Of a stretch of 64,000 bases of DNA, positions 1 through 39,393 are shown piece after piece. The DNA comes from Escherichia phage teqhad: the sequence record NC_054933.1; one strand, 5' to 3'. Numbering within the stretch: the first letter of the stretch is position 1; every line of letters begins with the position of its first letter. The notes beneath the pieces were generated by a model that made no database searches, was not told the DNA's origin, and saw only the letters and a list, made by a program, of their open reading frames with translations. The position numbers and the translations under genes are program-made.

Positions 1-817
1 TAACTTTGAAGCCAAAGCCATGCTCACCACAAGCATCATCCCATGTAATGAAGCCTTTATCTTCAAGTGGGTCTAAGATTTTACTCACATAAGTTTCACG
101 ATCATACTTATACGGAATCTCAGTGATATTCATTTGAGTTCGTGAAGTAAACTTGTACGTTCCACGAATTTCATATTGACCGTCAATCTCAACGACTTCA
201 CCACGAAATTCTGGGAATTCTACCTTCGGTTTAGTTACTTTCTTTCCTTGAATAGCTTGCAGTACAGCTTTCTTGACAGAAGAAACACTATGAGGAAGAA
301 TGTAAGTTGCATAACCAGTTGCAATACCGGAAACACCATTAAGAAGAACAGTAGGAATAATAGGCAAATAGAAAGCAGGCGGAATGTGTTCTTTATCTTG
401 ATGTACTGGAGCATATTCAGTATCTTTATATACGTTATAGAAATTTTTACTTACACGAGCAAAAATATAACGACTAGCTGCTGCCTTTTGGACAGTACGA
501 GAACCGAAGTTTCCTTGACCATCTAACAAAGGAAAGTTATTATTCCAAGTATTAGCCATCAAAGCCCCTGCATCTTGTGCAGAGTTTTCACCATGGTGAT
601 ATCCAAGGTCCGCTACACCACCTGCAATAGAAGCAAGTTTGTGAAACTTATCTTTATTTCCTCGTGCCAAATCAAGAGCTCGAGCAATAACAAATCGTTG
701 AACTGGCTTAAATCCATCAATCATATTTGGAATAGCACGATTTTCAACCGTGTACATAGCATAAGCCAATGCTTCATTATCAATGATACTTTTTAAATCG
801 CGATTATTCAGTTGCAT
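1..817 (-). CDS. 52: DNA topoisomerase II medium subunit (gp52), N-terminal part; 3' end lies beyond the window start
   Basis: Minus-strand frame open to the window edge; ATG at 817..815; N-terminus MQLNNRDLKSIIDNEALAYAMY... is GyrA-like. Not in the ORF track because it is truncated. Confidence 0.85.
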   Translation of the reverse strand, partial: MQLNNRDLKSIIDNEALAYAMYTVENRAIPNMIDGFKPVQRFVIARALDLARGNKDKFHKLASIAGGVADLGYHHGENSAQDAGALMANTWNNNFPLLDGQGNFGSRTVQKAAASRYIFARVSKNFYNVYKDTEYAPVHQDKEHIPPAFYLPIIPTVLLNGVSGIATGYATYILPHSVSSVKKAVLQAIQGKKVTKPKVEFPEFRGEVVEIDGQYEIRGTYKFTSRTQMNITEIPYKYDRETYVSKILDPLEDKGFITWDDACGEHGFGFKV

Positions 818-2047: not shown

Positions 2048-2245
2048 TCATTTTACACCATTCCAAATTGTTTCAACCACAGATTTTAAACCATTTTGAT
2101 GAATATCAATTCCGACTACTGTCATCAAATAGATTCCAACTACAACTGAACCTAAGGCAAAAATCAGCATGAAAATGAATAAAGCCGGAAAAATATTATC
2201 GAAAAACCATTCAATAAATGTAAAAGCACTGCGTTTACGCTTCAT
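2048..2245 (-). CDS. hypothetical membrane protein (65 aa)
   Basis: ORF 2048..2266 in track; internal ATG at 2245 has GTGAGGAAAAT SD; hydrophobic core. Confidence 0.5.
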   Translation of the reverse strand: MKRKRSAFTFIEWFFDNIFPALFIFMLIFALGSVVVGIYLMTVVGIDIHQNGLKSVVETIWNGVK

Positions 2246-2252
2246 ATTTTCC

Positions 2253-2366
2253 TCACATAAATCCAAAGTAAACGTTTAATACATCAATCATTAAAACGAT
2301 TGGGAATATACTCAAAACTATTAGTATTATAACTACATTCCATATAGCTTTAACAATCTTTTTCAT
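2253..2366 (-). CDS. small membrane protein (37 aa)
   Basis: C-terminal part of track ORF 2253..2501 starting MKKIVKAIW...; GGAGGA SD; the early promoter cassette lies immediately upstream, so the longer track ORF is unlikely. Confidence 0.4.
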   Translation of the reverse strand: MKKIVKAIWNVVIILIVLSIFPIVLMIDVLNVYFGFM

Positions 2367-2392
2367 TTTCTGTTCCTCCGTAGTTGATAGGG

Positions 2393-2424
2393 TAATAGTA
2401 CCACGGAAGAACAGTCTTGTAAAC
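2393..2424 (-). promoter_or_regulatory. T4-type early promoter (GTTTAC -35 / TGGTACTAT-type -10)
   Basis: Minus strand reads GTTTACAAGACTGTTCTTCCGTGGTACTATTAC; one copy of the repeated cassette. Confidence 0.5.
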
Positions 2425-2609
2425 AACTTTTTTAAAAATATTCGTAATAAATGTGAATACCAACTACTACCGCTGAAACCTGTGCAACCCACCACGCACA
2501 AGCAATAAGTACAGAATTCAAAATTTTCATAATAACCTCATCACAAAAGTAAATGTTAAACAAATTACTGGAATACTAATTAACCAAACAAAACACCACC
2601 ATAATGAAC

Positions 2610-2873
2610 TCATAGTTCAATCTCAGCGATTTTCATTTCATTACTATTAATAGCCGCTTTAAGACTATCTGAAAGAATTACATTCCAGTGGTCATTCATA
2701 TGACCATTAACTAAGCGTGTAATTTCTTCAGGAGTTGAAAAATAAGGCTGATCAGACTCCCAATGCGATAATCCTAAGCGAGTATAAATCATGCCTTCAT
2801 CATCACTAGAATATTCAACTGACACAAACTCATCAGTTATTTTATGCTTAGCATAATAAAATTTAAATTTCAT
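2610..2873 (-). CDS. hypothetical protein (87 aa)
   Basis: Track ORF 2610..2972; internal ATG at 2873 with GGAGAG SD, downstream of the early promoter. Confidence 0.5.
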   Translation of the reverse strand: MKFKFYYAKHKITDEFVSVEYSSDDEGMIYTRLGLSHWESDQPYFSTPEEITRLVNGHMNDHWNVILSDSLKAAINSNEMKIAEIEL

Positions 2874-2904
2874 TTTACTCTCCAAATCCGTATCAGTTGA
2901 TAGT

Positions 2905-3826: not shown

Positions 3827-4762
3827 TTTAAATTGTTCAGTAACGTCTTCAACTACTTCGTATTGGCAGGTACGCATTTTAGCATCGTTGTAATCAATCG
3901 GAATTGATACTACATCACGAGGATGAACTTTAACTTTTACAACTCGGCTGGTTGAACTGCCAAAGTGACGAATATAAGATTTAGAACACACATGCAGACC
4001 ACGAGAACAAGTTTGTGTATCATCGTCATTCACACGAGTACGTGGCATTTTAACTACTTTACCAGGACTGTTATCAAAGGTGTTTGAGTGACAGTCAAAG
4101 TAATTGCTGCGAACTACTTTCCAAGCATAGAAGTAACCATCTTCTGTAATTTCAATATCGTTTGCTACCAAGAAATCAAAGAGTCGAGATACCGCTTTTT
4201 GGCTTGGGTTTTCCAGCAGATTTTCCAAGAACGGAAAATAAAATTCAAAGTTTTCGCCTTTTTCCATCGAATCAAGAATACGATCAACCAAACCAGACCG
4301 CAATTCAATATTTTGATAGAACAGGCTTCCACCTTCAATTCGAACATCGCCGGAAATATATTTTTCAACAGCGCGACGAACATTAATTTTTTGTGCCGCT
4401 TCTTCCAGCTTATCCGCTACAAGCAGATTGAGAATTTCCTGGAAGTTTGAATGAGTATTAGGTGTTGCATTATAAGTTACACCATCGACAGTAATCGAAA
4501 TGAATTTTTTAGATGCATTCCAAATAATGTCAGATTTAGTAACTGGAGCAATAACTGCATCGCTATTAACTTTAACTGTAATATCACCGCTAATAGTAAC
4601 TTTAGAGCGTTTAGCTTCTTCAGCATTTTTCAAAACACGACGGATTGTATCAACCGATACACCTTGCCAATCAGCCAATTCCTGCTGAGTATAATTACCG
4701 CTTGAATACAGTTTAACAATTTCAGCTTGTTCGTTTTTGGTCAGGCATTTAATATTGTACAT
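3824..4762 (-). CDS. rIIB: rIIB protein (312 aa)
   Basis: 312 aa, N-terminus MYNIKCLTKNEQAEIVKLY...; adjacent to rIIA as in T4. Confidence 0.9.
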   Translation of the reverse strand: MYNIKCLTKNEQAEIVKLYSSGNYTQQELADWQGVSVDTIRRVLKNAEEAKRSKVTISGDITVKVNSDAVIAPVTKSDIIWNASKKFISITVDGVTYNATPNTHSNFQEILNLLVADKLEEAAQKINVRRAVEKYISGDVRIEGGSLFYQNIELRSGLVDRILDSMEKGENFEFYFPFLENLLENPSQKAVSRLFDFLVANDIEITEDGYFYAWKVVRSNYFDCHSNTFDNSPGKVVKMPRTRVNDDDTQTCSRGLHVCSKSYIRHFGSSTSRVVKVKVHPRDVVSIPIDYNDAKMRTCQYEVVEDVTEQFK

Positions 4763-4773
4763 AATTTTCCTTA

Positions 4774-6951
4774 TTAGGCCGCAAGGGCCTTCATAGTTTT
4801 AGCGATTTGGGAAACTTCATCATCACTTAAAGAGTTGCGATATCCGATGAAGTCGGAAACAATACGGAATTTCTTGGTAAACTCAGCAACCATTTTATCA
4901 CTGTTTTTTGAAGCATTATTTGATAATACATCAAAAAGATTAGTTACTGTCCAGATATCATGACCGATGGTATCTTTTCCACCATTAAAATATACACCGC
5001 GCAATGAACTAACTATATTAGCGAGTCGTGTATATTCTTCAGAAACTTCATCTGTACTGAAGTACTTCATCATAAAATCTAGTTCAGGATACTTGATAAT
5101 TTTATCAATATATCGTTGAGCTGAACTTGAATAACCTACATACTTATCATAATCTACATCATCAAAAGCATCTACATATAAATCACGCAAAGCTTCAAAA
5201 ATACATTGGCACTGACCGAGTTCTTTTACCTTTTTCTGTAAAAGCGGACGAATAACATAAAATTCATTAATGCCAATAAGATTAGCCATACGAATCAAAA
5301 TATTCATAGATGGATGACAAAGTGATGTAGTACCATCCATAGAGAAAATATCAGAACGATGCATATACGCTACATAACCAGTAATTTCATCTGCTTCTGA
5401 CGTAAGTGTAAATAGTTCCTCTTTTTCCCATCGCCCATCTTTAATTTCAAATTTAAATGCTGTAGCAGCTTTAGGACGAGGAGCTTTACTTTTAACTGCC
5501 TTCGGAATATAACTTTTAACTAAAGCTTCAATTTCTGACAAATAATGAATGTTAACTTCATCACTTTCAAACATTGCCATAATATCAGGAAGTAAATCAA
5601 TCTGCGATTCTACTTCCGGATTAATAAACAGAAGACGCTCATTATGATGAATATTCAAAGTGTTATTAAATTCACTATCATCTAACGCATGCGCTAATCC
5701 ACGGACAATATTAACACGATTTTTAATATTATCAATAACGATATTAATTTTTGTTGTATTAATACCAAACAGACGATAACTTGATGCAACGGCTGAAGTT
5801 TCATGGCTTTGCTTAATGCGTTTCAGTCGAGGGTCAAGATTTACTTCATACACAACTCCTGCATTGCATAACTTACTGTCAGGTTCAAACATGCTCTGCA
5901 TTTTCTTATATGACAGATTTTTAGTCGTGAATTTGACTGAATTACTAATCATATAATCTCGAGCAGAATACCCCATCTTCATCAATTCACGATATGTGTG
6001 ACGAGGAGATGTAGATTCTTTAAATCGTTTTACATCTTCATTAAATGCTTTCTCACTAAGCTCTTTAACTCGTTCAATAATATTTTTACGAGTGCGATCA
6101 TCTAATGAAAGAGCTTCACGTGATGGAGCAATATCAAGTGAACCCATTGGAAATTTAATGTAATTCACTTCATTACGAATGCTTAGCCAGTTACGGTCTC
6201 TAATAACACCATCGATAGGATAAACAATACCACCATAGATAGCATATAATCCACCACGATCAGGCCAGTATCTTTCTGGATTTACACCGTAATAGTCATC
6301 AAAATCCGGAAAATAATCAATTTCACGGTCAAGACCATTAATAATAGCTAAATCTTTGAACGGTCGCATGATATAAGAAACTTCATAAGCAAAGTTGCTA
6401 AAATCTTTTTCTTCAACTGGAACTACAATTTCAATACCAGTTTTATCATCTGGACCCATTTCTTTCACGAATGTAGGTTTAATTTGTGGACCATCGCCAT
6501 CCATGTAAGCTACATAACCACGAATTTCACCTTTATGATACGAAGTAATACTAAATGTATCAGTATAACTAAACGGAGATTTAGAACCTAAACCAAATCC
6601 GCCAATGAAATCGTTAGATTCAGCCTTAGATGAACTGAAGTATGAATTATACAAACCAGGAGAATTATCATCACCCTGAATATCAAAATCACTCATACCC
6701 GGACCAAAATCTCGGCAAACAAATCGTGGATCTAAACGTCCAGGAACTTGAATGATAAATTTTTCAGGATTTCCATTGAGAGCATGGGCATCAATCATGT
6801 TGGTAATCAATTCACGAACAACTGCGCGAATTTTGTTTGTATACAAATCAGATGACAGAATTTTAAATACTTTAGGAGATGCTGTGATGCTAAATGCTTT
6901 TGATTTAGAACCATTACCAAGAATTGTTTCTTTTTCAGTGGTGATAATCAT
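4774..6951 (-). CDS. rIIA: rIIA protein (725 aa)
   Basis: 725 aa ORF, GAGGAAATT SD; size and synteny match T4 rIIA. Confidence 0.9.
4778..4795 (-). other. intercistronic hairpin between rIIA and rIIB
   Basis: GGCCGCAAGGGCC, a GC stem with a small loop, directly 3' of the rIIA stop and 5' of the rIIB SD. Confidence 0.4.
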
Positions 6952-6961
6952 AATTTCCTCA

Positions 6962-7165
6962 TTAATTCATATTACGCTTAATAACTTCAGCAACTTCTAG
7001 TAGTTCATCTTTAGTTGCGGTGTCGGATTGAATTTTATCTCTAATATCTTTAAAGCGGTTTTTAAATTCTTCGGCTTCTCCCATATCGAAAAAGCGTTGA
7101 ATGATTCTATATTCTCGATGAACTGCTTTATCAAAAAGTTCTAAATTTACTCTATATGATTTCAT
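6962..7165 (-). CDS. rIIA.1-like small protein (67 aa)
   Basis: Track ORF between 39 and rIIA. Confidence 0.55.
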
Positions 7166-7190
7166 TTCAATATCCTCATTTGCCCAATTA

Positions 7191-7220
7191 ATTATACCAC
7201 ATCCTTGTGGTAAAGTAAAC
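7191..7220 (-). promoter_or_regulatory. T4-type early promoter (overlaps the 3' end of gene 39)
   Basis: Minus strand GTTTACTTTACCACAAGGATGTGGTATAAT; near-identical copy at 54092..54121. Confidence 0.55.
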
Positions 7221-9037
7221 TACTGGCTCATCCATTCTTTGCGAAGGTCAGCATTATCTCCCATGAGCATTTCAAAAAGCTCTTTCCAGTTCTCAGGAAG
7301 TTTAACAACATCATATACTGGATTTTGAATCATCTCACGATATTCAGATTTTTCCAAAGAGCCAAGTCCTTTAATATAACGGATGCTATGTTTAGGTAGA
7401 GCATCTTTGGCACTCTCATATTCAGCGACTGTATAAAACCATTCTTGTTTTTTACCGACCTGAGCGATGATTACAGGAGTTTTGACAAAGCGAATTCGTC
7501 CTTGCTCAAACAATTCTGGCCAATTACTAAAAAACCCGAGCAGAGAAGGATAAATGCTTCCTAGACCATCATGGTCAGCATCAGTCATAATAGCAATATT
7601 ATGATAATTCAAGTTTTCAGCTTTTTCACCAAGAACTAATCCAGTGATTGCGCAAATATCAAACAGTTCTTTGTTTTTAAGCATATCAGCATATGACATA
7701 CCCCAGCTGTTAAGAACTTTACCACGCAATGGATAACCACCATGAAGTTCTTTATCACGAACATCAATAAGATATCCGATAGCAGAATCACCCTCAGTCA
7801 AGAAAAGAGTAGTATCAGCATCTTTACCGCAAAGATTCGCTTTGATATGTTTATGAACCTTAGCTTTAGAAGCCTTTTTAGCTGCTTTAGTTTCTGCTGC
7901 TTTTTCTGCTGCCAATTTACGAGCTAATGCTGCTTCAATAATTGGCATCAAAATTGCTTCATTATTTAGAATAGCGCGTGAAATCTTTTTAGCATCAAGT
8001 TGAATATGACTACGGATTTCACCAAATGGAGAAGTCAAACGCTCTTTAGTTTGAGAATCAAATCGCATGTTTTTCATATCACGAACAAACATAACGATAG
8101 TCAAACATTCTTTGACACGTGCTTTAGTTACATCAATTTTGAACTTACGTTTGATTTGTGGAATAAGGTCTTCACAAATATCATCCATAACACAGTCAAT
8201 GTGATGGCCACCATTCTTAGTGTGAATGTTATTCACGTAAGTTAATTGACGAAATCCATCCGGTGAACGACCAACCGCAATAGAACAATTTTCTTGTTCT
8301 TGAACGATAGCATGTTCATCATACTGTCGTGCATATTTCTTAAAATTGCCCTGAACCTTTTTACCATTAAAGGTAAATTGAATATCAGGATAAACAACAG
8401 CAAGTGTCTGGAGACGATCTAGCGTAATATCAAGATAAACTTGGGACAGCTCATTAGTTTCAAATGACATAAAATCAGGAATGAAAGTAACACGAGTTCC
8501 TTTCCATTTTCCAGGAATAGTTTCCCAGGATTTATTTTCCATGCCGTTTGAACAACGAACTACAATATTATTTTGACCATCGCCAGTTTCACCAACAAAC
8601 ATCACAGAAAAAATGTTTGTCAAACTAGAACCAACACCATTCATACCACCGGTGACGCGTTCTTTATCATCACCGAAGTTACCACCTGCTTTTGGAATAG
8701 TCCACGCAGCAACAGGACCAGGAATTTCTTCACCGGTAGGTGTTTTAACCATCGCTTGTGGAATACCGCGACCATTATCTTCAACTGTTACTTGATTGTT
8801 TTTAATAGTAACATTAATTTTATTTGCGAATTTAAACTTAGTACGAATACCTTCATCTACTGAGTTATCGATAATTTCATCAATAAGCTTAACAAGACCA
8901 GGTACATACTGAACACTTTCCCATTTACCAAACAGAAAGCGCTCATGCATTTCATTAGCAGAAGAGCCAATATACATGCCGCTACGCTTTTTGATATGTT
9001 CAATATCGCTCAGAATTTTAATTTCATTCTTAATCAT
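7220..9037 (-). CDS. 39: DNA topoisomerase II large subunit, uninterrupted (605 aa; equivalent to T4 gp39 plus gp60 as one ORF)
   Basis: Continuous ORF; ATG at 9037 with GAGGA SD; MIKNEIKILSDIEHIKKRSGMYIGS..., GyrB-like ATPase and TOPRIM. Confidence 0.9.
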   Translation of the reverse strand: MIKNEIKILSDIEHIKKRSGMYIGSSANEMHERFLFGKWESVQYVPGLVKLIDEIIDNSVDEGIRTKFKFANKINVTIKNNQVTVEDNGRGIPQAMVKTPTGEEIPGPVAAWTIPKAGGNFGDDKERVTGGMNGVGSSLTNIFSVMFVGETGDGQNNIVVRCSNGMENKSWETIPGKWKGTRVTFIPDFMSFETNELSQVYLDITLDRLQTLAVVYPDIQFTFNGKKVQGNFKKYARQYDEHAIVQEQENCSIAVGRSPDGFRQLTYVNNIHTKNGGHHIDCVMDDICEDLIPQIKRKFKIDVTKARVKECLTIVMFVRDMKNMRFDSQTKERLTSPFGEIRSHIQLDAKKISRAILNNEAILMPIIEAALARKLAAEKAAETKAAKKASKAKVHKHIKANLCGKDADTTLFLTEGDSAIGYLIDVRDKELHGGYPLRGKVLNSWGMSYADMLKNKELFDICAITGLVLGEKAENLNYHNIAIMTDADHDGLGSIYPSLLGFFSNWPELFEQGRIRFVKTPVIIAQVGKKQEWFYTVAEYESAKDALPKHSIRYIKGLGSLEKSEYREMIQNPVYDVVKLPENWKELFEMLMGDNADLRKEWMSQ

Positions 9038-9064
9038 CACTTATCCTCGTTTGGTTTCGGGAAT

Positions 9065-9090
9065 ATTATACTCCGGTAATCATAAAGCTA
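9065..9090 (-). promoter_or_regulatory. middle-promoter-like element (MotA-box-like AGCTTTA, 12 bp, TATAAT)
   Basis: Minus strand AGCTTTATGATTACCGGAGTATAAT upstream of gene 39. Confidence 0.4.
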
Positions 9091-9110
9091 AAGGCCCGAA
9101 GGCCTTTTAT
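9088..9110 (-). terminator. hairpin AAAGGCC-UUCG-GGCCUUU
   Basis: Overlaps the stop of the lipoprotein ORF; followed by U-rich sequence. Confidence 0.45.
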
Positions 9111-9376
9111 TTAAAACGGATAGTCGAATCTTTGAAGAATAGACCAGAACATACTGTTCCTTCTACTTTCTGCCCGGTAGGTCCAACAGCACGAAATCCA
9201 GTATGTTGGAAATCATTTTCAGAACAACCGAACCAATTATATCCAGTGATTTCAATATTAGTAAAACCACTTGAAGACAAAACTTTGGTTGCATTATCAG
9301 CATCAGTACATCCTACTAAAGACACTGTTAATACTAATGCTGCAATAGAACGATTAATATATTTCATAATTTTCAC
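9107..9376 (-). CDS. putative lipoprotein (89 aa)
   Basis: Signal peptide with lipobox ...LTVSLVGC. Confidence 0.55.
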   Translation of the reverse strand: MKIMKYINRSIAALVLTVSLVGCTDADNATKVLSSSGFTNIEITGYNWFGCSENDFQHTGFRAVGPTGQKVEGTVCSGLFFKDSTIRFK

Positions 9377-9744
9377 TTAAATTTAATGGCTTGAAGAAGA
9401 CTAATAATTCTCAAGCGACTTCTTTCATCTTTAACTGTAAAAGAAAGAGGGTCACCAGATTTCATAGTAATAGTACATTCAAAATCAAAATCTTCTGTGA
9501 CTTCTTCGAAGAAGTCAAATTCTTCAGCATAAATTAGAACATTACTCTGCATACTGTGAAGAATTTTTCCGTTATTTCCAGACGCTGTACTAATCATCGT
9601 AACATTATGACCTTTCATATCTTCAACGATAAATTCGCTTGTAGATATTACAGCATTAATAGAACCATTCCTATAAATAGCAGACATTAGATATTTCTTT
9701 TCTTCGCCTTCGCGAATACGATATTTCTTACCGATTTTAAACAT
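9373..9744 (-). CDS. hypothetical protein (123 aa)
   Basis: Track ORF 9373..9750 begins at GTG; the ATG at 9744 is preferred. Confidence 0.5.
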   Translation of the reverse strand: MFKIGKKYRIREGEEKKYLMSAIYRNGSINAVISTSEFIVEDMKGHNVTMISTASGNNGKILHSMQSNVLIYAEEFDFFEEVTEDFDFECTITMKSGDPLSFTVKDERSRLRIISLLQAIKFK

Positions 9745-9923
9745 AATCACCCTTTAAGTAAGTCGTAAAATCCGCCATTCACATGCTTAGGAGCAGAAGC
9801 CCGACGAGTAGACAAACGATGACATTTAGGGCAAACATCATTTTCTCGTTCAGAAATCTTTTTAATTTTTTCATATTCATGCCCGCAATCTTCGGATTGG
9901 CATTTATAATCATACATTGGCAT
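9744..9923 (-). CDS. zinc-ribbon protein (59 aa, CxxC...CxxC)
   Basis: Hand-translated MPMYDYKCQSEDCGHEYEKIKKISERENDVCPKCHRLSTRR...; not in track (<60 aa). Confidence 0.45.
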
Positions 9924-9925
9924 AA

Positions 9926-10351
9926 TTATTCCTTAAAATGAGCTTTCAGCATCTGATACAAGGACCATGCCTGTTCATTATTTTCAATAGTAACTTTCAT
10001 GACAGGAAATTCTGTGAAATCTTCTATTTGTTCTTGCTCTTGCTCTTCCTGCTCTTGCTCTTCAGCTGCCTGATATGGATTTTCCACTTCATCAAAGAAC
10101 TCAGCTTCGTTAGTAGAGAGCCAGATAAAGTTTTCGTCAAGGATATCACCATGTGTTGCATATCCAATTGTGCCAGTAAATGACATAATTTTAGTAGGAC
10201 GACCAAGATGGTCAACATCTAAAATTTTAAAAGGATGCATACCTAAACGTCGTGCATAAATTCCGTTATCAGTATGGTCTTTAATAAAAGCTTCTTGAGC
10301 TTGTTTATTTTTAAATTGATACCATTTATTAACTTCAAATTTAATAGCCAT
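9926..10351 (-). CDS. goF: GoF-like protein (141 aa) with acidic EQ repeat
   Basis: 141 aa, the size and position of T4 goF; contains [12 protein letters not shown]. Confidence 0.5.
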
Positions 10352-10566
10352 TAATAAATTTCCTTCCAGTAAGTTGTGCCATCTTCAGTAATTTCACGAA
10401 ATACACCGTAAATTGGTTGTTTATCACCAACCTTTTCATACACATAAACCGAAGTCAAGTGAGTAAACTTAACGGTATGTTCCTTTTGAACTACTACCAA
10501 ATCTGGATCGAATAATACATCTTCAAATTCGTCATTAGTGCAGTTCTGAACAATTTTACGTTTCAT
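10351..10566 (-). CDS. cef: Cef-like protein (71 aa)
   Basis: 71 aa ORF directly after goF, as in T4. Confidence 0.5.
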
Positions 10567-10579
10567 TACAATTTCCTCA

Positions 10580-10849
10580 TTAATTGAACAGTGGAGCGAT
10601 GCGTTTCAGAAGAGTAGCAGCACCTTTGGCAAATTTTACATCATGAAAAACAGTTTCTTCTTCCGTTACAACACGAGCTTTAATGTTTTCACAATCCCAA
10701 TTTTTGCGAACAATCTTCAAAAGCTGCAGTAAATCTTTACATTCAGCAATATCGATAACACATCCACGAGAATCTTCCATTATCGCACGATAACCGTAAG
10801 CCATACCATAATCATTGAAAGATTGCTCGATGATAATTAAATTTTCCAT
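10580..10849 (-). CDS. hypothetical protein (89 aa)
   Basis: Track ORF starts at TTG inside the conserved leader; the ATG at 10849 follows GGAGAATAAA. Confidence 0.5.
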   Translation of the reverse strand: MENLIIIEQSFNDYGMAYGYRAIMEDSRGCVIDIAECKDLLQLLKIVRKNWDCENIKARVVTEEETVFHDVKFAKGAATLLKRIAPLFN

Positions 10850-10955
10850 TTTATTCTCCAAGTTGTTTTCTGTATCAGTAGTTGATATTGATATAGTACC
10901 ATAATCAACTACTGATGTATATAGTTTTATGAAAAATTTTAAACTTTATGCAAAT

Positions 10956-11375
10956 TTATGCTAAAGCTGCTTCGCACCATTTTTTAATTTGGAATTCAGG
11001 AACTACCATGAACTGGCCTGCAAAAACAATATTGTAGAGCTTGACACCATCTTCTACCCAACGGTCCGAAATAAAACCAGCGACTTGATTCGTTGTCCAT
11101 GGAGTTCCATCTGTTGCCGCCGCAATTGTGAATTTATGGTCTTTTACAACTAAAACTGAAGAACAAAGTTTCCATTTAAATGCGCTTTCTTCTGGCTCAA
11201 TGAACTGACTTGAGACATAACCAATGTTACCATCAGCGTCACGAACTTTAACCTCGTTACGACCAAAAACTGGATCACTTACAGAAAGAACTTCAACCAG
11301 CTTTCCTGCAACTTTAGAACGAGAAGCAACGGATACATATACGTAATCACCAGTAGAGAGATTTACAATATTCAT
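10956..11375 (-). CDS. hypothetical protein, tandem paralog 1 of 3 (139 aa)
   Basis: Shares N-terminal SRSKxAGxLVEV and C-terminal DxWVEDGxKLYNIVF motifs with 11385..11858. Confidence 0.6.
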   Translation of the reverse strand: MNIVNLSTGDYVYVSVASRSKVAGKLVEVLSVSDPVFGRNEVKVRDADGNIGYVSSQFIEPEESAFKWKLCSSVLVVKDHKFTIAAATDGTPWTTNQVAGFISDRWVEDGVKLYNIVFAGQFMVVPEFQIKKWCEAALA

Positions 11376-11384
11376 AATAATTCC

Positions 11385-11858
11385 TTAAGCTTTACGAGGA
11401 GAAGCATAACGAGTGATTTCAGATTCTTCAACAACCCGGAAGTCACCTAAGAATACGATATTGTAGAGCTTTTCACCATCTTCAACCCATTGGTCTGTGA
11501 TGAAGCCACACATCCTATCAGTTTTACTTGGACCAGCGAAATCATCAATATAATCGAATTCTTCATCAGTTACAAATTCAACGCCTTTACACAACGCCCA
11601 TTTAAATTGTGCATTAGACTCAGTGGATTCAACTTCTTCAACAGAAGCAAAATGAGAGCTAACACGAGTTTCCAGAAATTTAGGACTTACGTAAGCGTAC
11701 TGAGTTTCAGTTTTTCCAGAACTAGGAATGATTCGAACTTTAACTTCTATAACACGACCAGTACCATTAGTACGAAGTCCTACCACTTCAACTAGACGAC
11801 CTGCAGCTTTAGAACGAGATGCAGACGATACACGCTTAATTTCACCGATAGTAATCAT
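11385..11858 (-). CDS. hypothetical protein, tandem paralog 2 of 3 (157 aa)
   Basis: See paralog 1. Confidence 0.6.
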   Translation of the reverse strand: MITIGEIKRVSSASRSKAAGRLVEVVGLRTNGTGRVIEVKVRIIPSSGKTETQYAYVSPKFLETRVSSHFASVEEVESTESNAQFKWALCKGVEFVTDEEFDYIDDFAGPSKTDRMCGFITDQWVEDGEKLYNIVFLGDFRVVEESEITRYASPRKA

Positions 11859-11930: not shown

Positions 11931-12425
11931 TTAATTAAGGATATTAATTACTGCACTACGTGGAACTACACTAAAATCACCTGCATGAACAACGTTCAGA
12001 AGTTCAACACCGTCTTCAATCCACTGATCAGTTACCCATCCACTCACTGGACCTGCGAACGGACGTCGAATTGAAACAGCTTTACACAACAAATCAGTAG
12101 GCTCAATAGGCTTAACCAGAGTACCGTACATACAAGCGATATCCATATCAATACAGATGTCTTTAACGGGTTCTACTTCTTCAATCAACAGTTCAAAGTC
12201 GGTGCTTGGAAGGGCGGTAGTAGAAATTGTACCGTATGAATTTTTAATTTCTAAGAATAACCAAGGGCCTTCAGCTTGTTTGATGAAGTTAACAATAGTG
12301 AAACTATTACCTTGAGTGGCGCCTAAAATTTCACAAAACTTTTCATAAGCTCGCACTGAAGCACCATACCAGTTGATTTGCTTTTCGTCTTTCAGGATGT
12401 AAGTAGCTGTAGTACTGATATTCAT
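11931..12425 (-). CDS. hypothetical protein, tandem paralog 3 of 3 (164 aa)
   Basis: C-terminal GWVTDQWIEDGVELLNVVHAGDFSVV is related to paralogs 1 and 2. Confidence 0.55.
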   Translation of the reverse strand: MNISTTATYILKDEKQINWYGASVRAYEKFCEILGATQGNSFTIVNFIKQAEGPWLFLEIKNSYGTISTTALPSTDFELLIEEVEPVKDICIDMDIACMYGTLVKPIEPTDLLCKAVSIRRPFAGPVSGWVTDQWIEDGVELLNVVHAGDFSVVPRSAVINILN

Positions 12426-36752: not shown

Positions 36753-36944
36753 TTAGTCATAATAATCAGTAACAGTCCAAGCTTCATTTCTATTGGACAT
36801 TATTTTTGTATATTCTGCTTTAAATGCATTCCTAAGCATAGATTCAGTAACTATATGCTCTTCATTAGAAAAATTATTTCTCAGAATATATCGTTTTATT
36901 TCAGGAAAAGTTAATAGATGCTGTCCGGTTGAATATTCTGCCAC
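36753..36944 (-). CDS. 45.2-like small protein (63 aa)
   Basis: Track ORF. Confidence 0.5.
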   Translation of the reverse strand: MAEYSTGQHLLTFPEIKRYILRNNFSNEEHIVTESMLRNAFKAEYTKIMSNRNEAWTVTDYYD

Positions 36945-36995: not shown

Positions 36996-37712
36996 ATGAA
37001 TTATAAACTAATTTATGAAAAGTTAATCTCTAATGCTAAATCTCGAAAACTTGATTGCTATACTGAATCTCATCACATTATACCACGCTGTTTAAATGGC
37101 AGCGATGATGCTTCAAACTTAGTAGAGTTAACACCAGAAGAGCACTATGTAGCTCATCAACTTTTAGTAAAAATTTATCCTTCTGAACCAAAATTAGTCT
37201 ATGCTGCTAACATGATGACAGTTTCCACGAAATACGCTAAACGCAACAATAAAACTTTCGGTTGGATTCGTCGTAAACTCTGGGAAATAGAAAAGAACAA
37301 AGAATTCTCCCAGGAGACACGAAAGAAAATGTCTGATGCAGTAGCTAATAAAGCAAGACTAACTTGTCCTCATTGCGGTAAGTCTGGATTAAGCGGGAAT
37401 ATGAATCGTTGGCATTTTGATAACTGCCCAAATCACCCTAATCCTAAAGTTAGACCACCAATGTCTAAAGAACACAGAAATAATATCTCAAACGGACTTA
37501 AAGCAATCGTTCTTGAAGAAACATCCTGCGAATTCTGCGGAATGATAGGCAAGAAATGCGTTATCGCAGCGCATAGAAATTTCTGCAAGAAAAATCCAAA
37601 TGGACGCAAGAAAACTGAAAAGACTGGTACTTGCGTCCATTGTGGTAAAGTTACCACTTTCGGAAATTTATCAAGATGGCATAATGATAACTGTAAATAT
37701 AAACCTAGCTAA
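36996..37712 (+). mobile_element. free-standing HNH homing endonuclease gene (238 aa) on the opposite strand, with repeated CxxC zinc-ribbon motifs
   Basis: HNH motif ...ESHHIIPRCLNGSDDASNLVELTPEEHYVAHQ...; C-terminal repeats CPHCGKSGLSGNMNRWHFDNC and CVHCGKVTTFGNLSRWHNDNC. Confidence 0.8.
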
Positions 37713-39393
37713 TCTTAGCTAAACTAAATCTACCAACTTTTTCCATTTGAATATGCTGACCGTATTCTTGTGGGTCATGGTCTTTATGCGAAATTATGAA
37801 GAAGTTGGTATCCTTCAAACCATCTAAAATTTTAGCTACATTTTTAATACCTTCAGCATCAAATGCACCGTCATACACTTCATCAAGAAATAAACAACTT
37901 ATTTTAACACCTGAAACTTTTTCAGCAATATCACGCCAAGTAAATAAAAGAGCAATATCAATTCGTGCTTTTTCACCTTGACTGAATGAAGCATAACTAA
38001 AATCTTCACGACCACGGGATTTAATTGTCTCATTAAATTCTTCATCTAATGTAAACACATAATCCGCTTCCATTATTTTAAGATAATAATTAATCTGTTT
38101 ATTAAATAATGGAATGTACTTTTTAATAATAGCACCTTTAATACCAGAATCTTTGAGCATATCAGTCAAAATTCCTCGGTGGTATTTTTCCATTACTAAA
38201 TTAGTTTTTGTCTTAACAATTTTATCAAGTTCTTCTTGAAGCAGTGCTATTTCATCAGCATGGTCAATAAACTCAGAAGATGCTTTTTCTATAGCTGCTT
38301 TAACTTTTTTAGCTTTATCTACCGTCGTGATTAAGGATTGCTTTTTATTGCGAATATCATTTGCTAATGACTGTTGGGTTTTAATATTATCTCGGTATTC
38401 ATCAACAAGAACTTTTAAATTATCGCGATGCGTTGAAAGCTGTTCAAACGAATGCGTGCATTCAGAAACTTTATCTTTAATTTTAGAAACAACTTTATCA
38501 CCGGAACTTAATTGTGACAAACAGGTTGGACATAATCCACCTTCATGATACATATTAATGACTTTATTATACGAGTCAATTTTTGATTTAATTAAAACTG
38601 CTTCTTGACCGATTTTATTAAATGCATCAGTCGGGTCTTCGTCTAAAACAATATTAACTAATCTTTCATTAGCTTCTTCTATTTCTGATTTTAGCGTTCT
38701 AGCTTCTTTTGCCAAATCATCATACATATTTTGAAGACGAGTAAGGTTGTCACCAGACAATTTTTTCTGACGTTCAACATTATCATTATATATTTTAATT
38801 TGTTGGATAATACTATCTTTTTTAACATCAAGCACTTGGTTTTGTGAATTTAATTCACGTATTAGTGCTTTATTAAGCTTATCCATTTCAGCTAATGTTC
38901 CTACCTCAAGCAGGTCTTCCACAAGCTTTCTTCGTGCAGGGGTCGACAAACCCATGAAAGGGGTATACCCTGCTGTACCAAGGACAACAATCTGCTTGAA
39001 ACTGGCATATGACATTCCGATAAGCTGTTCAAATTCTGCTTGGAAATCTTTACTGCTGGCAGATTCATTAAGACGTGTACCGTTAACGGTGATTTCGAAA
39101 ACGTTTGGTTTTTGTCCTCTTTTGATATAGTACTTTTTCTCATCATATTCCATCCACAGTTCAACTAAAAGTTCTTTCTTATTTGTGCTGTTTATTAATT
39201 GACCTTTCTTTACATCACGAAATGGCTTGCCAAAAAGCCCAAACGTGATGGCTTCTAACATAGTAGACTTACCACCGCCATTTCGTCCAGTAATAAGAGT
39301 TTTTTGAACCTTATCTAATTGAATGTCAATAGGATTTCCACCTACTGACATTATATTTTGATACCTAACTCGGTTTAGTTTAAAATTCTTCAC
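37705..39393 (-). CDS. 46: recombination nuclease subunit gp46 (Rad50/SbcC-like, 562 aa)
   Basis: Walker A GRNGGGKST; coiled-coil middle; C-terminal signature/Walker B. Confidence 0.9.
   Translation of the reverse strand: MKNFKLNRVRYQNIMSVGGNPIDIQLDKVQKTLITGRNGGGKSTMLEAITFGLFGKPFRDVKKGQLINSTNKKELLVELWMEYDEKKYYIKRGQKPNVFEITVNGTRLNESASSKDFQAEFEQLIGMSYASFKQIVVLGTAGYTPFMGLSTPARRKLVEDLLEVGTLAEMDKLNKALIRELNSQNQVLDVKKDSIIQQIKIYNDNVERQKKLSGDNLTRLQNMYDDLAKEARTLKSEIEEANERLVNIVLDEDPTDAFNKIGQEAVLIKSKIDSYNKVINMYHEGGLCPTCLSQLSSGDKVVSKIKDKVSECTHSFEQLSTHRDNLKVLVDEYRDNIKTQQSLANDIRNKKQSLITTVDKAKKVKAAIEKASSEFIDHADEIALLQEELDKIVKTKTNLVMEKYHRGILTDMLKDSGIKGAIIKKYIPLFNKQINYYLKIMEADYVFTLDEEFNETIKSRGREDFSYASFSQGEKARIDIALLFTWRDIAEKVSGVKISCLFLDEVYDGAFDAEGIKNVAKILDGLKDTNFFIISHKDHDPQEYGQHIQMEKVGRFSLAKIS

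Follow-up and report, generated by a model that had tools for sequence, protein, structure and literature searches.

In bacteriophage T4, the large subunit of DNA topoisomerase II is divided between genes 39 and 60, with mobA associated with the split and a 50-nt ribosomal hop in gene 60. The locus described here raises the question of whether the same arrangement exists in the 64-kb stretch of phage DNA that we analysed (the window), or whether the subunit is encoded by an undivided gene and, if so, what this implies for the origin of the gene and the identity of the phage. The original prediction, drawn from the sequence without database searches, favored an undivided gene 39 without gene-60 split, mobA or translational bypass, and regarded it as an ancestral, insertion-free allele of a non-T4 lineage. 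Our comparisons agree with the description of T4 and bear out each of these points. We estimate a probability of roughly 95% that positions 7220..9037 (minus strand) carry an intact, never-split or parental-type T-even gene 39 allele, which provides a complete GyrB-like subunit on one polypeptide chain.

The ORF listing shows gene 39 at 7220..9037 (minus) as 605 codons followed by a stop codon, without interruption, and the predicted coordinates and length are thus correct. Its assignment to the large (GyrB-like) subunit of DNA topoisomerase II is provided by Pfam, PHROG 543 and PDB 8ylu_C. With the base composition of the window (about 35% G+C), the probability that 605 codons remain open by chance is approximately 4e-22. 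The longest form of the ORF spans 7220..9040 (minus) and encodes 606 amino acids from a GTG codon, and initiation at the ATG at 9037 yields 605 amino acids. The ATG is likely to be the start codon rather than the GTG at 9040, because a GAGGA sequence is located 6 nt upstream of it and because the resulting N-terminus, MIKNEIK, is found in gp39 of T4, T2, T6 and RB3. The GAGGA sequence itself (9044..9048, minus) is read directly, and its role as a Shine-Dalgarno element for ribosome binding is putative; its spacing to the GTG is merely 3 nt.

Further upstream, a candidate T4 middle-type promoter of gene 39 can be read at 9065..9090 (minus), composed of a MotA-box-like TAGCTTTA at 9090..9083, a 12-nt spacer and TATAAT at 9070..9065. 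We take TAGCTTTA to resemble the MotA-box consensus, and the site is proposed as a candidate only; it is not among the sites listed by a sigma-70 scan. Adjacent to it, the sequence AAGGCC-TTCG-GGCCTT at 9091..9106 (minus) would form a hairpin with a UUCG tetraloop directly after the stop codon of 39.1, which may act as an RNA stabiliser or a weak terminator.

The neighborhood of the gene is also as predicted, a single ORF extending between rIIA.1 and a lipoprotein gene. Downstream, rIIA.1 (6962..7165, minus) is recognized by Pfam T4_RIIA1 with E = 2.2e-33, and rIIA (4774..6951) is the next gene after it. The upstream neighbor (9107..9376, minus; phrog_902) is a homologue of 39.1 that is predicted to be a lipoprotein on account of a signal peptide and an LVGC lipobox recognized by inspection, and related records label it either '39.1' or 'putative lipoprotein'. 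Among its possible lengths of 86-89 amino acids, 86 is the most probable, with initiation at the ATG at 9367, in line with the annotation of T2, T6 and RB3. The genes that flank the locus in T4, namely rIIA, rIIA.1 and 39.1, are the same as those found here.

The 605-residue product contains all of the elements anticipated for a GyrB-like subunit. The hit to PHROG 543 ('DNA topoisomerase II large subunit') extends over residues 1-605 (E = 1.6e-295), and residues 1-605 of the T6 gp39 structure (PDB 8ylu_C) align end to end with residues 1-605 of our ORF at 1388 bits. The GHKL ATPase domain is identified by Pfam HATPase_c above its cut-off (E = 1.9e-9), and a motif scan locates the N-box (EIIDNSVD, aa 54), G1 (DNGRG, aa 87) and G2 (GMNGVG, aa 131). 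The transducer domain follows (Pfam DNA_gyraseB, E = 1.5e-13), with the QTK loop at aa 329, and Pfam TOPRIM_C spans aa 519-604. The two catalytic motifs of the TOPRIM domain bear on the split. The catalytic-Glu motif EGDSA (aa 415-419; 7781..7795, minus), found by motif scan, has its T4 counterpart on gp39, whereas the acidic DxDxD motif, DADHD (aa 486-490; 7568..7582, minus), found by motif scan and by alignment with T4 gp60, has its counterpart on gp60. The whole TOPRIM domain is therefore on a single polypeptide here, both motifs lying in one ORF, in contrast to the two polypeptides of T4.

The domain order, i.e. GHKL ATPase, transducer and TOPRIM, is shared with GyrB/ParE and with the N-terminal half of eukaryotic Topo II, and the catalytic motifs are conserved. 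Structures of human Topo II alpha/beta and of bacterial ParE/GyrB give significant matches with E values of 1e-60 to 1e-36. The phage subunit is, however, far shorter than GyrB, and the T-even enzymes relax DNA instead of supercoiling it.

Alignment with the T4 reference (NC_000866), which covers both T4 proteins, demonstrates how the single frame corresponds to the two genes. Residues 1-473 match T4 gp39 1-473 at 98.3% identity, and residues 472-605 match T4 gp60 27-160 at 95.5%, with no gap between them. One frame here thus holds the topoisomerase-derived parts of both gp39 and gp60. At the nucleotide level, the homology to T4 is divided into three blocks: window 9369..7620 to T4 5661..3911 (95.8%), window 7611..7566 to T4 2899..2854 (76%), and window 7555..6900 to T4 2793..2138 (99.1%). 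T4 homology ends at 7620 and resumes at 7555, so that the 64-nt stretch at 7556..7619 (minus; gene nt 1419-1482, codons 473-494, A-ENLNYHNIAIMTDADHDGLGS) is the part that is swapped in T4 for a MobA element of approximately 1.1 kb. The higher T4 identity of the third block relative to the first (99.1% vs 95.8%) might be read as a T4-derived co-conversion tract in the 3' part of the gene; we rejected this reading, since T2, T6 and RB3 are also 98.5-99.1% identical there.

Both edges of the swapped stretch can be defined precisely. Ala473 is the last codon common with T4, after which T4 proceeds to the gp39 tail, FEEKEDGEW..., and our sequence to ENLNYHNIAIMTDADHDG, the ORF reading ENLNYHN in frame. 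At the other edge, the site equivalent to the T4 hop consists of Gly491 (GGT) and Leu492 (CTA), which are contiguous in the codon alignment (7562..7567, minus). The sequence around it reads GAT GGT CTA GGA AGC in frame, whereas T4 has GAT GGA, a 50-nt gap ending in GGA, and then TTA GGT TCT; T4-like identity picks up again 9 nt past the landing codon. The T4 substitute for the 64-nt stretch, HomR, is 76% identical to it over 46 nt and 60.6% over 66 nt. Altogether, the T4 element (Huang 1988; Bonocora et al. 2011, as summarised by Manning & Atkins 2022) adds a 43-aa gp39 tail, the mobA pseudogene with 60.1, a 26-30-aa gp60 N-terminus and HomR as a divergent copy, and it places a coding gap of 50 nt behind Gly46 (GGA). 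According to Manning & Atkins (bioRxiv 10.1101/2022.08.31.505936), the MobA element is inserted at aa 466-473 and its 3' end in clade 1 is at G491 + 9 nt, and a 64-nt deletion is filled by the element-borne HomR with 67-81% identity. The breakpoints observed here (aa 473, 9 nt past G491, 64 nt) agree with these published boundaries of the MobA/bypass element to the nucleotide.

None of the parts that the element adds to T4 was recovered elsewhere in the window. The T4 hop sequence, whose search had been proposed as a check of the original prediction, has 0 matches in the 64 kb at up to 3 mismatches, and the window has no coding gap of ~50 nt flanked by matched GGA codons for take-off and landing, with a stop codon behind the take-off site. 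The T4 insert of 1.06 kb yields only chance-level matches by blastn against all 64 kb, except for the HomR-equivalent stretch. By tblastn over the same 64 kb, the C-terminal tail of T4 gp39 (CTE, ~44 aa) finds nothing (best E = 2.6), and gp60.1 together with the gp60 N-terminus gives chance-level matches only. At the gene 39 locus there is neither mobA nor a remnant of it, and no intervening DNA. With the gp39 and gp60 parts in one frame and the parts of the element absent from the 64 kb, the predicted lack of a split, of mobA and of a bypass is confirmed.

A single significant MobA-like match does occur in the window, at 37035..37127 (plus; E = 7e-6). Its source is a separate, free-standing HNH endonuclease gene (36996..37712, plus) located between the homologues of 45.2 and 46. 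T4 is not known to have an HNH gene between 45.2 and 46, which would be a further difference between the window and T4.

These searches also bear on the reading that had been named with the prediction as its refutation, in which the ORF corresponds to gp39 alone while gene 60, hop-containing or not, is encoded at another place. Such an arrangement has a precedent in Campylobacter Firehammerviruses, which do have ORF2 elsewhere (bioRxiv 10.1101/2022.08.31.505936). Here, however, the C-terminal 134 residues are themselves the gp60 homologue (95.5%), including DxDxD. Moreover, tblastn of T4 gp60 and gp39 against the whole 64-kb window matches this locus alone, with no second gene 60 or 39, and the window lacks the hop sequence. 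A gp60 paralogue within the remaining ~100 kb of the genome would be redundant. This reading is refuted for the 64-kb window and, in our view, extremely improbable overall, and the undivided gene accounts for the topoisomerase-derived parts of both T4 proteins.

The undivided form is the same as that found in the classical relatives of T4. The gene 39 products of T2, T6 and the RB series (e.g. RB3, RB14, RB32) are likewise 605 aa in length, and their genes are likewise located between rIIA.1 and 39.1. Our gene aligns with those of T2 (two records), T6 and RB3 across 1818 columns without a gap, at 96.8-98.3% nucleotide identity, which completes, for T2 and T6, the comparison proposed with the prediction. 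The substitutions are scattered and mainly synonymous, and the structure and organisation are alike. At the protein level, there are two differences from T2 (T173D and F70L), one from T6 (Q526H) and one from RB3 (T173D).

Beyond the gene, collinearity with T2 extends over 4774..10952 of the window (96.4% identity, 4 gaps). In the database, non-T4 Tequatroviruses match best, at ~96% over 25 kb, and T4 is not among the top matches. Together with the one or two amino acid differences above and with 9370..9741, which T4 lacks, the T2 collinearity supports the predicted assignment of the window to a Tequatrovirus of a non-T4, T2/T6/RB-like lineage.

The same data speak to the idea that the window might derive from T4 itself, or from a laboratory derivative of it that has lost the insert. 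Identity to T4 does reach 97-99% in rIIA, rIIA.1 and the 3' portion of gene 39. Within gene 39, however, there are 87 nucleotide differences from a virtual fusion of the T4 genes, and the 64 nt are of T2 type. The region of window 9370..9741, lacking in T4, carries a 125-aa ORF, identity in the motB region falls to 69-88%, and the best database matches are, as noted, the non-T4 Tequatroviruses at ~96%. The idea that the window is T4 or a derivative of it is refuted by these data, and the non-T4 Tequatrovirus assignment is retained.

The allele type by itself should be interpreted more narrowly than the lineage. The 5' 1416 nt of gene 39 are 96.0% identical to T4, 96.5% to T2 and 96.3% to T6, and over the 3' 336 nt the identity to each of T4, T2, T6 and RB3 is 98.5-99.1%. 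Since gene 39 outside the element is about equally near to T4, T2 and T6, and the genomes are mosaic, the unsplit state does not mark a deeply separate lineage; it indicates that no element is present.

To describe how widespread the unsplit state is, we used a 131-nt probe spanning the junction (window 7530..7660). The junction is contiguous in 450 phage records, and element-bearing records match the first ~40 nt of the probe alone. The T4 element is found in 43 records, comprising T4 strains and relatives such as RB55, RB59, HY01 and HY03, and the unsplit state thus represents ~91% of close Tequatrovirus records. An earlier figure of 520 records at a coverage of at least 80% gives no clean unsplit count, pieces up to 1750 nt apart having been joined, and the junction probe was used instead. 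At the protein level, a 150-aa junction-spanning peptide is covered to at least 80% in 2040 of 2154 records, as one piece in all of the rows sampled, and such single-piece matches extend to other Straboviridae genera and to far more distant phages. The unsplit state is ordinary, the majority condition and long published: other T4-related phages were described as having this subunit as a single ORF in 2010 (PMC3014915), and the literature, dating from at least 2010-2011, received additions in 2022 and 2024.

The predicted 'ancestral, insertion-free' character of the allele is supported by this distribution (450 unsplit against 43 element records, with distant phages also unsplit) and by the clean breakpoints without remnants of the element. 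The term 'ancestral' is drawn from distribution and breakpoints rather than from a rooted phylogeny, and a lineage freed of the element by gene conversion with an unsplit donor would be indistinguishable in sequence.

Such a loss is the substance of the remaining alternative, a scar-free secondary reversion in which an ancestor was invaded by the MobA/bypass element and later restored when a co-infecting unsplit phage served as donor in gene conversion. Other clades provide documented cases of element loss, among them Aeromonas phages with a re-fused ORF (bioRxiv 10.1101/2022.08.31.505936), and Tequatrovirus genomes are mosaic, with gene 39 outside the element being as near to T4 (96.0%) as to T2/T6. 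Nevertheless, the documented hit-and-run alleles retain residues derived from the CTE/NTE, and none are found here. The protein has the T2/T6 length of exactly 605 aa, the 64-nt stretch is 100% of T2 type and not of T4-HomR type, and the unsplit state is held by the large majority of records. We thus regard reversion as unlikely, with only a small chance of being correct; if true, it would document loss of the element within Tequatrovirus. The never-split or parental-type allele remains the preferred reading, and no result of the analysis speaks against it.

With respect to function, the partner A-type subunit, gp52, is encoded in the same genome. The 5' part of gene 52, which encodes the topoisomerase II medium (GyrA-like) subunit, is visible at 2..817 (minus), cut by the start of the window, and matches T4 gp52 aa 1-272 at 98.9% identity by tblastn. 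The gp39 described here and gp52 would assemble into an A2B2 type IIA topoisomerase as in T2/T6, in which GyrB-like gp39 would supply the ATP gate and the metal-binding acidic residues of TOPRIM, and GyrA-like gp52 the catalytic tyrosine. The A2B2 enzyme would transiently cleave both strands of one duplex and pass a second duplex through the break, and presumably carries out ATP-dependent relaxation during phage replication. Neither subunit reassembly nor translational bypass would be needed.

The three-subunit layout of T4 originated from insertion of the MobA homing-endonuclease element, which brought the gp39/gp60 extensions, mobA, HomR and the 50-nt bypass cassette. The topoisomerase has two subunits in T2/T6 and three in T4 (PMC11461880). 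In the same work, the T4 and T6 enzymes were both assayed, and T6 Topo II is active with its two subunits; the ~70 extra residues of T4 hang outside the TOPRIM domain, and the fused and natural T4 enzymes are alike in activity (PMC11461880). Because it is only one amino acid away from the characterised T6 gp39, the 605-aa protein should act like the T6 enzyme in ATP-dependent relaxation.

For annotation, the correct designation of the gene is '39, DNA topoisomerase II large subunit' and not 'gyrB', and there is no missing gene 60 to be sought. The allele type can serve as a quick marker that the phage is neither T4 nor one of its ~40 element-bearing relatives. Otherwise, the locus provides one further 'parental' sequence of the type used to delimit the MobA/bypass element, and its import beyond annotation is small.

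The only inference that our analysis adds concerns the phage as a target of MobA homing. In the summary of Bonocora et al. 2011 given in bioRxiv 10.1101/2022.08.31.505936, intact MobA nicks T2 gene 39 in the HomR-equivalent region, ~20 nt upstream of the position of the bypass cassette. The nick leads, according to the same summary, to transfer of the split gene together with the hop cassette, and the cassette shields invaded genomes from re-cleavage. In our sequence, the region equivalent to the nick site falls inside 7556..7619, and the junction is contiguous across the insertion/deletion site of the element at its published breakpoints. Gene nt 1401-1500, which cover the 64-nt stretch, are 100% identical to both T2 records. 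Given this identity with T2 over the 100 nt that surround the insertion site, the phage is predicted to be a susceptible, naive recipient of MobA homing, and co-infection with a mobA+ phage would be expected to convert its gene 39 to the split-plus-hop form.

At codons 326-328 of gene 39, which encodes the large subunit of DNA topoisomerase II, the T4 reference record (NC_000866) reads LIR, whereas the window, T2, T6 and RB3 all read FDS. The difference lies directly N-terminal of the QTK loop of the transducer domain. With three residues in a row altered, the T4 reading has the look of a frameshift that was later compensated, or else of a sequencing mistake in this old record. The medium subunit, gene 52 (2..817, minus strand, identified by its match to T4 gp52), is cut by the start of the window, and its visible part, amino acids 1-272, is 98.9% identical to T4 gp52.

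Upstream of gene 39, the 39.1 gene (9107..9376, minus strand) is intact and encodes a predicted lipoprotein of 86-89 aa with an LVGC lipobox. Comparison with T4 positions 5398..5670 shows that the signal-peptide part of the T4 gene (MKYISRSIAALVLAVSLINSTDAD*) falls in a different frame and has lost the lipobox cysteine that the window copy retains; from its sequence, the 65-aa 39.1 annotated in T4 looks like a frameshifted remnant. Immediately 3' of the 39.1 stop codon, a perfect tetraloop hairpin, AAGGCC-UUCG-GGCCUU, can be read from the sequence (9091..9106, minus strand), and a MotA-box-like sequence and a TATAAT, both ahead of gene 39, come shortly downstream of it.

Between 39.1 and 39.2 lies a 125-aa ORF of unknown function (9373..9750, minus strand), which matches phrog_622 and bears weak similarity to goF-family PHROGs. 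T2, T6 and RB3 all carry this ORF, whereas T4 is devoid of it, its homology jumping over window positions 9370..9741. Divergence is also seen in the motB / motB.1 / motB.2 region, where identity to T4 is only 69-80% and the T2 sequence is mostly unalignable. Three adjacent paralogous ORFs are located here on the minus strand, of 139 aa (10956..11375), 157 aa (11385..11858) and 164 aa (11931..12425), sharing the C-terminal motif GFI[ST]D[QR]WVEDG..L.N[IV]V..G.F.VV.

A free-standing HNH homing-endonuclease gene of 238 aa (36996..37712, plus strand) sits between 45.2 (36753..36944) and gene 46 (37705..39393), on the strand opposite to both (minus), and overlaps the end of gene 46 tail-to-tail by 8 nt. 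PHROG comparison assigns it to phrog_655, 'homing endonuclease' (1e-68), and the N-terminus of its product is 48% identical over 31 aa to the T4 remnant of MobA, the HNH endonuclease of the mobile element that divides the large-subunit gene into 39 and 60 in T4. The gene is an optional element, being covered in 58 of the 502 related records, RB32, RB33 and Aplg8 among them.
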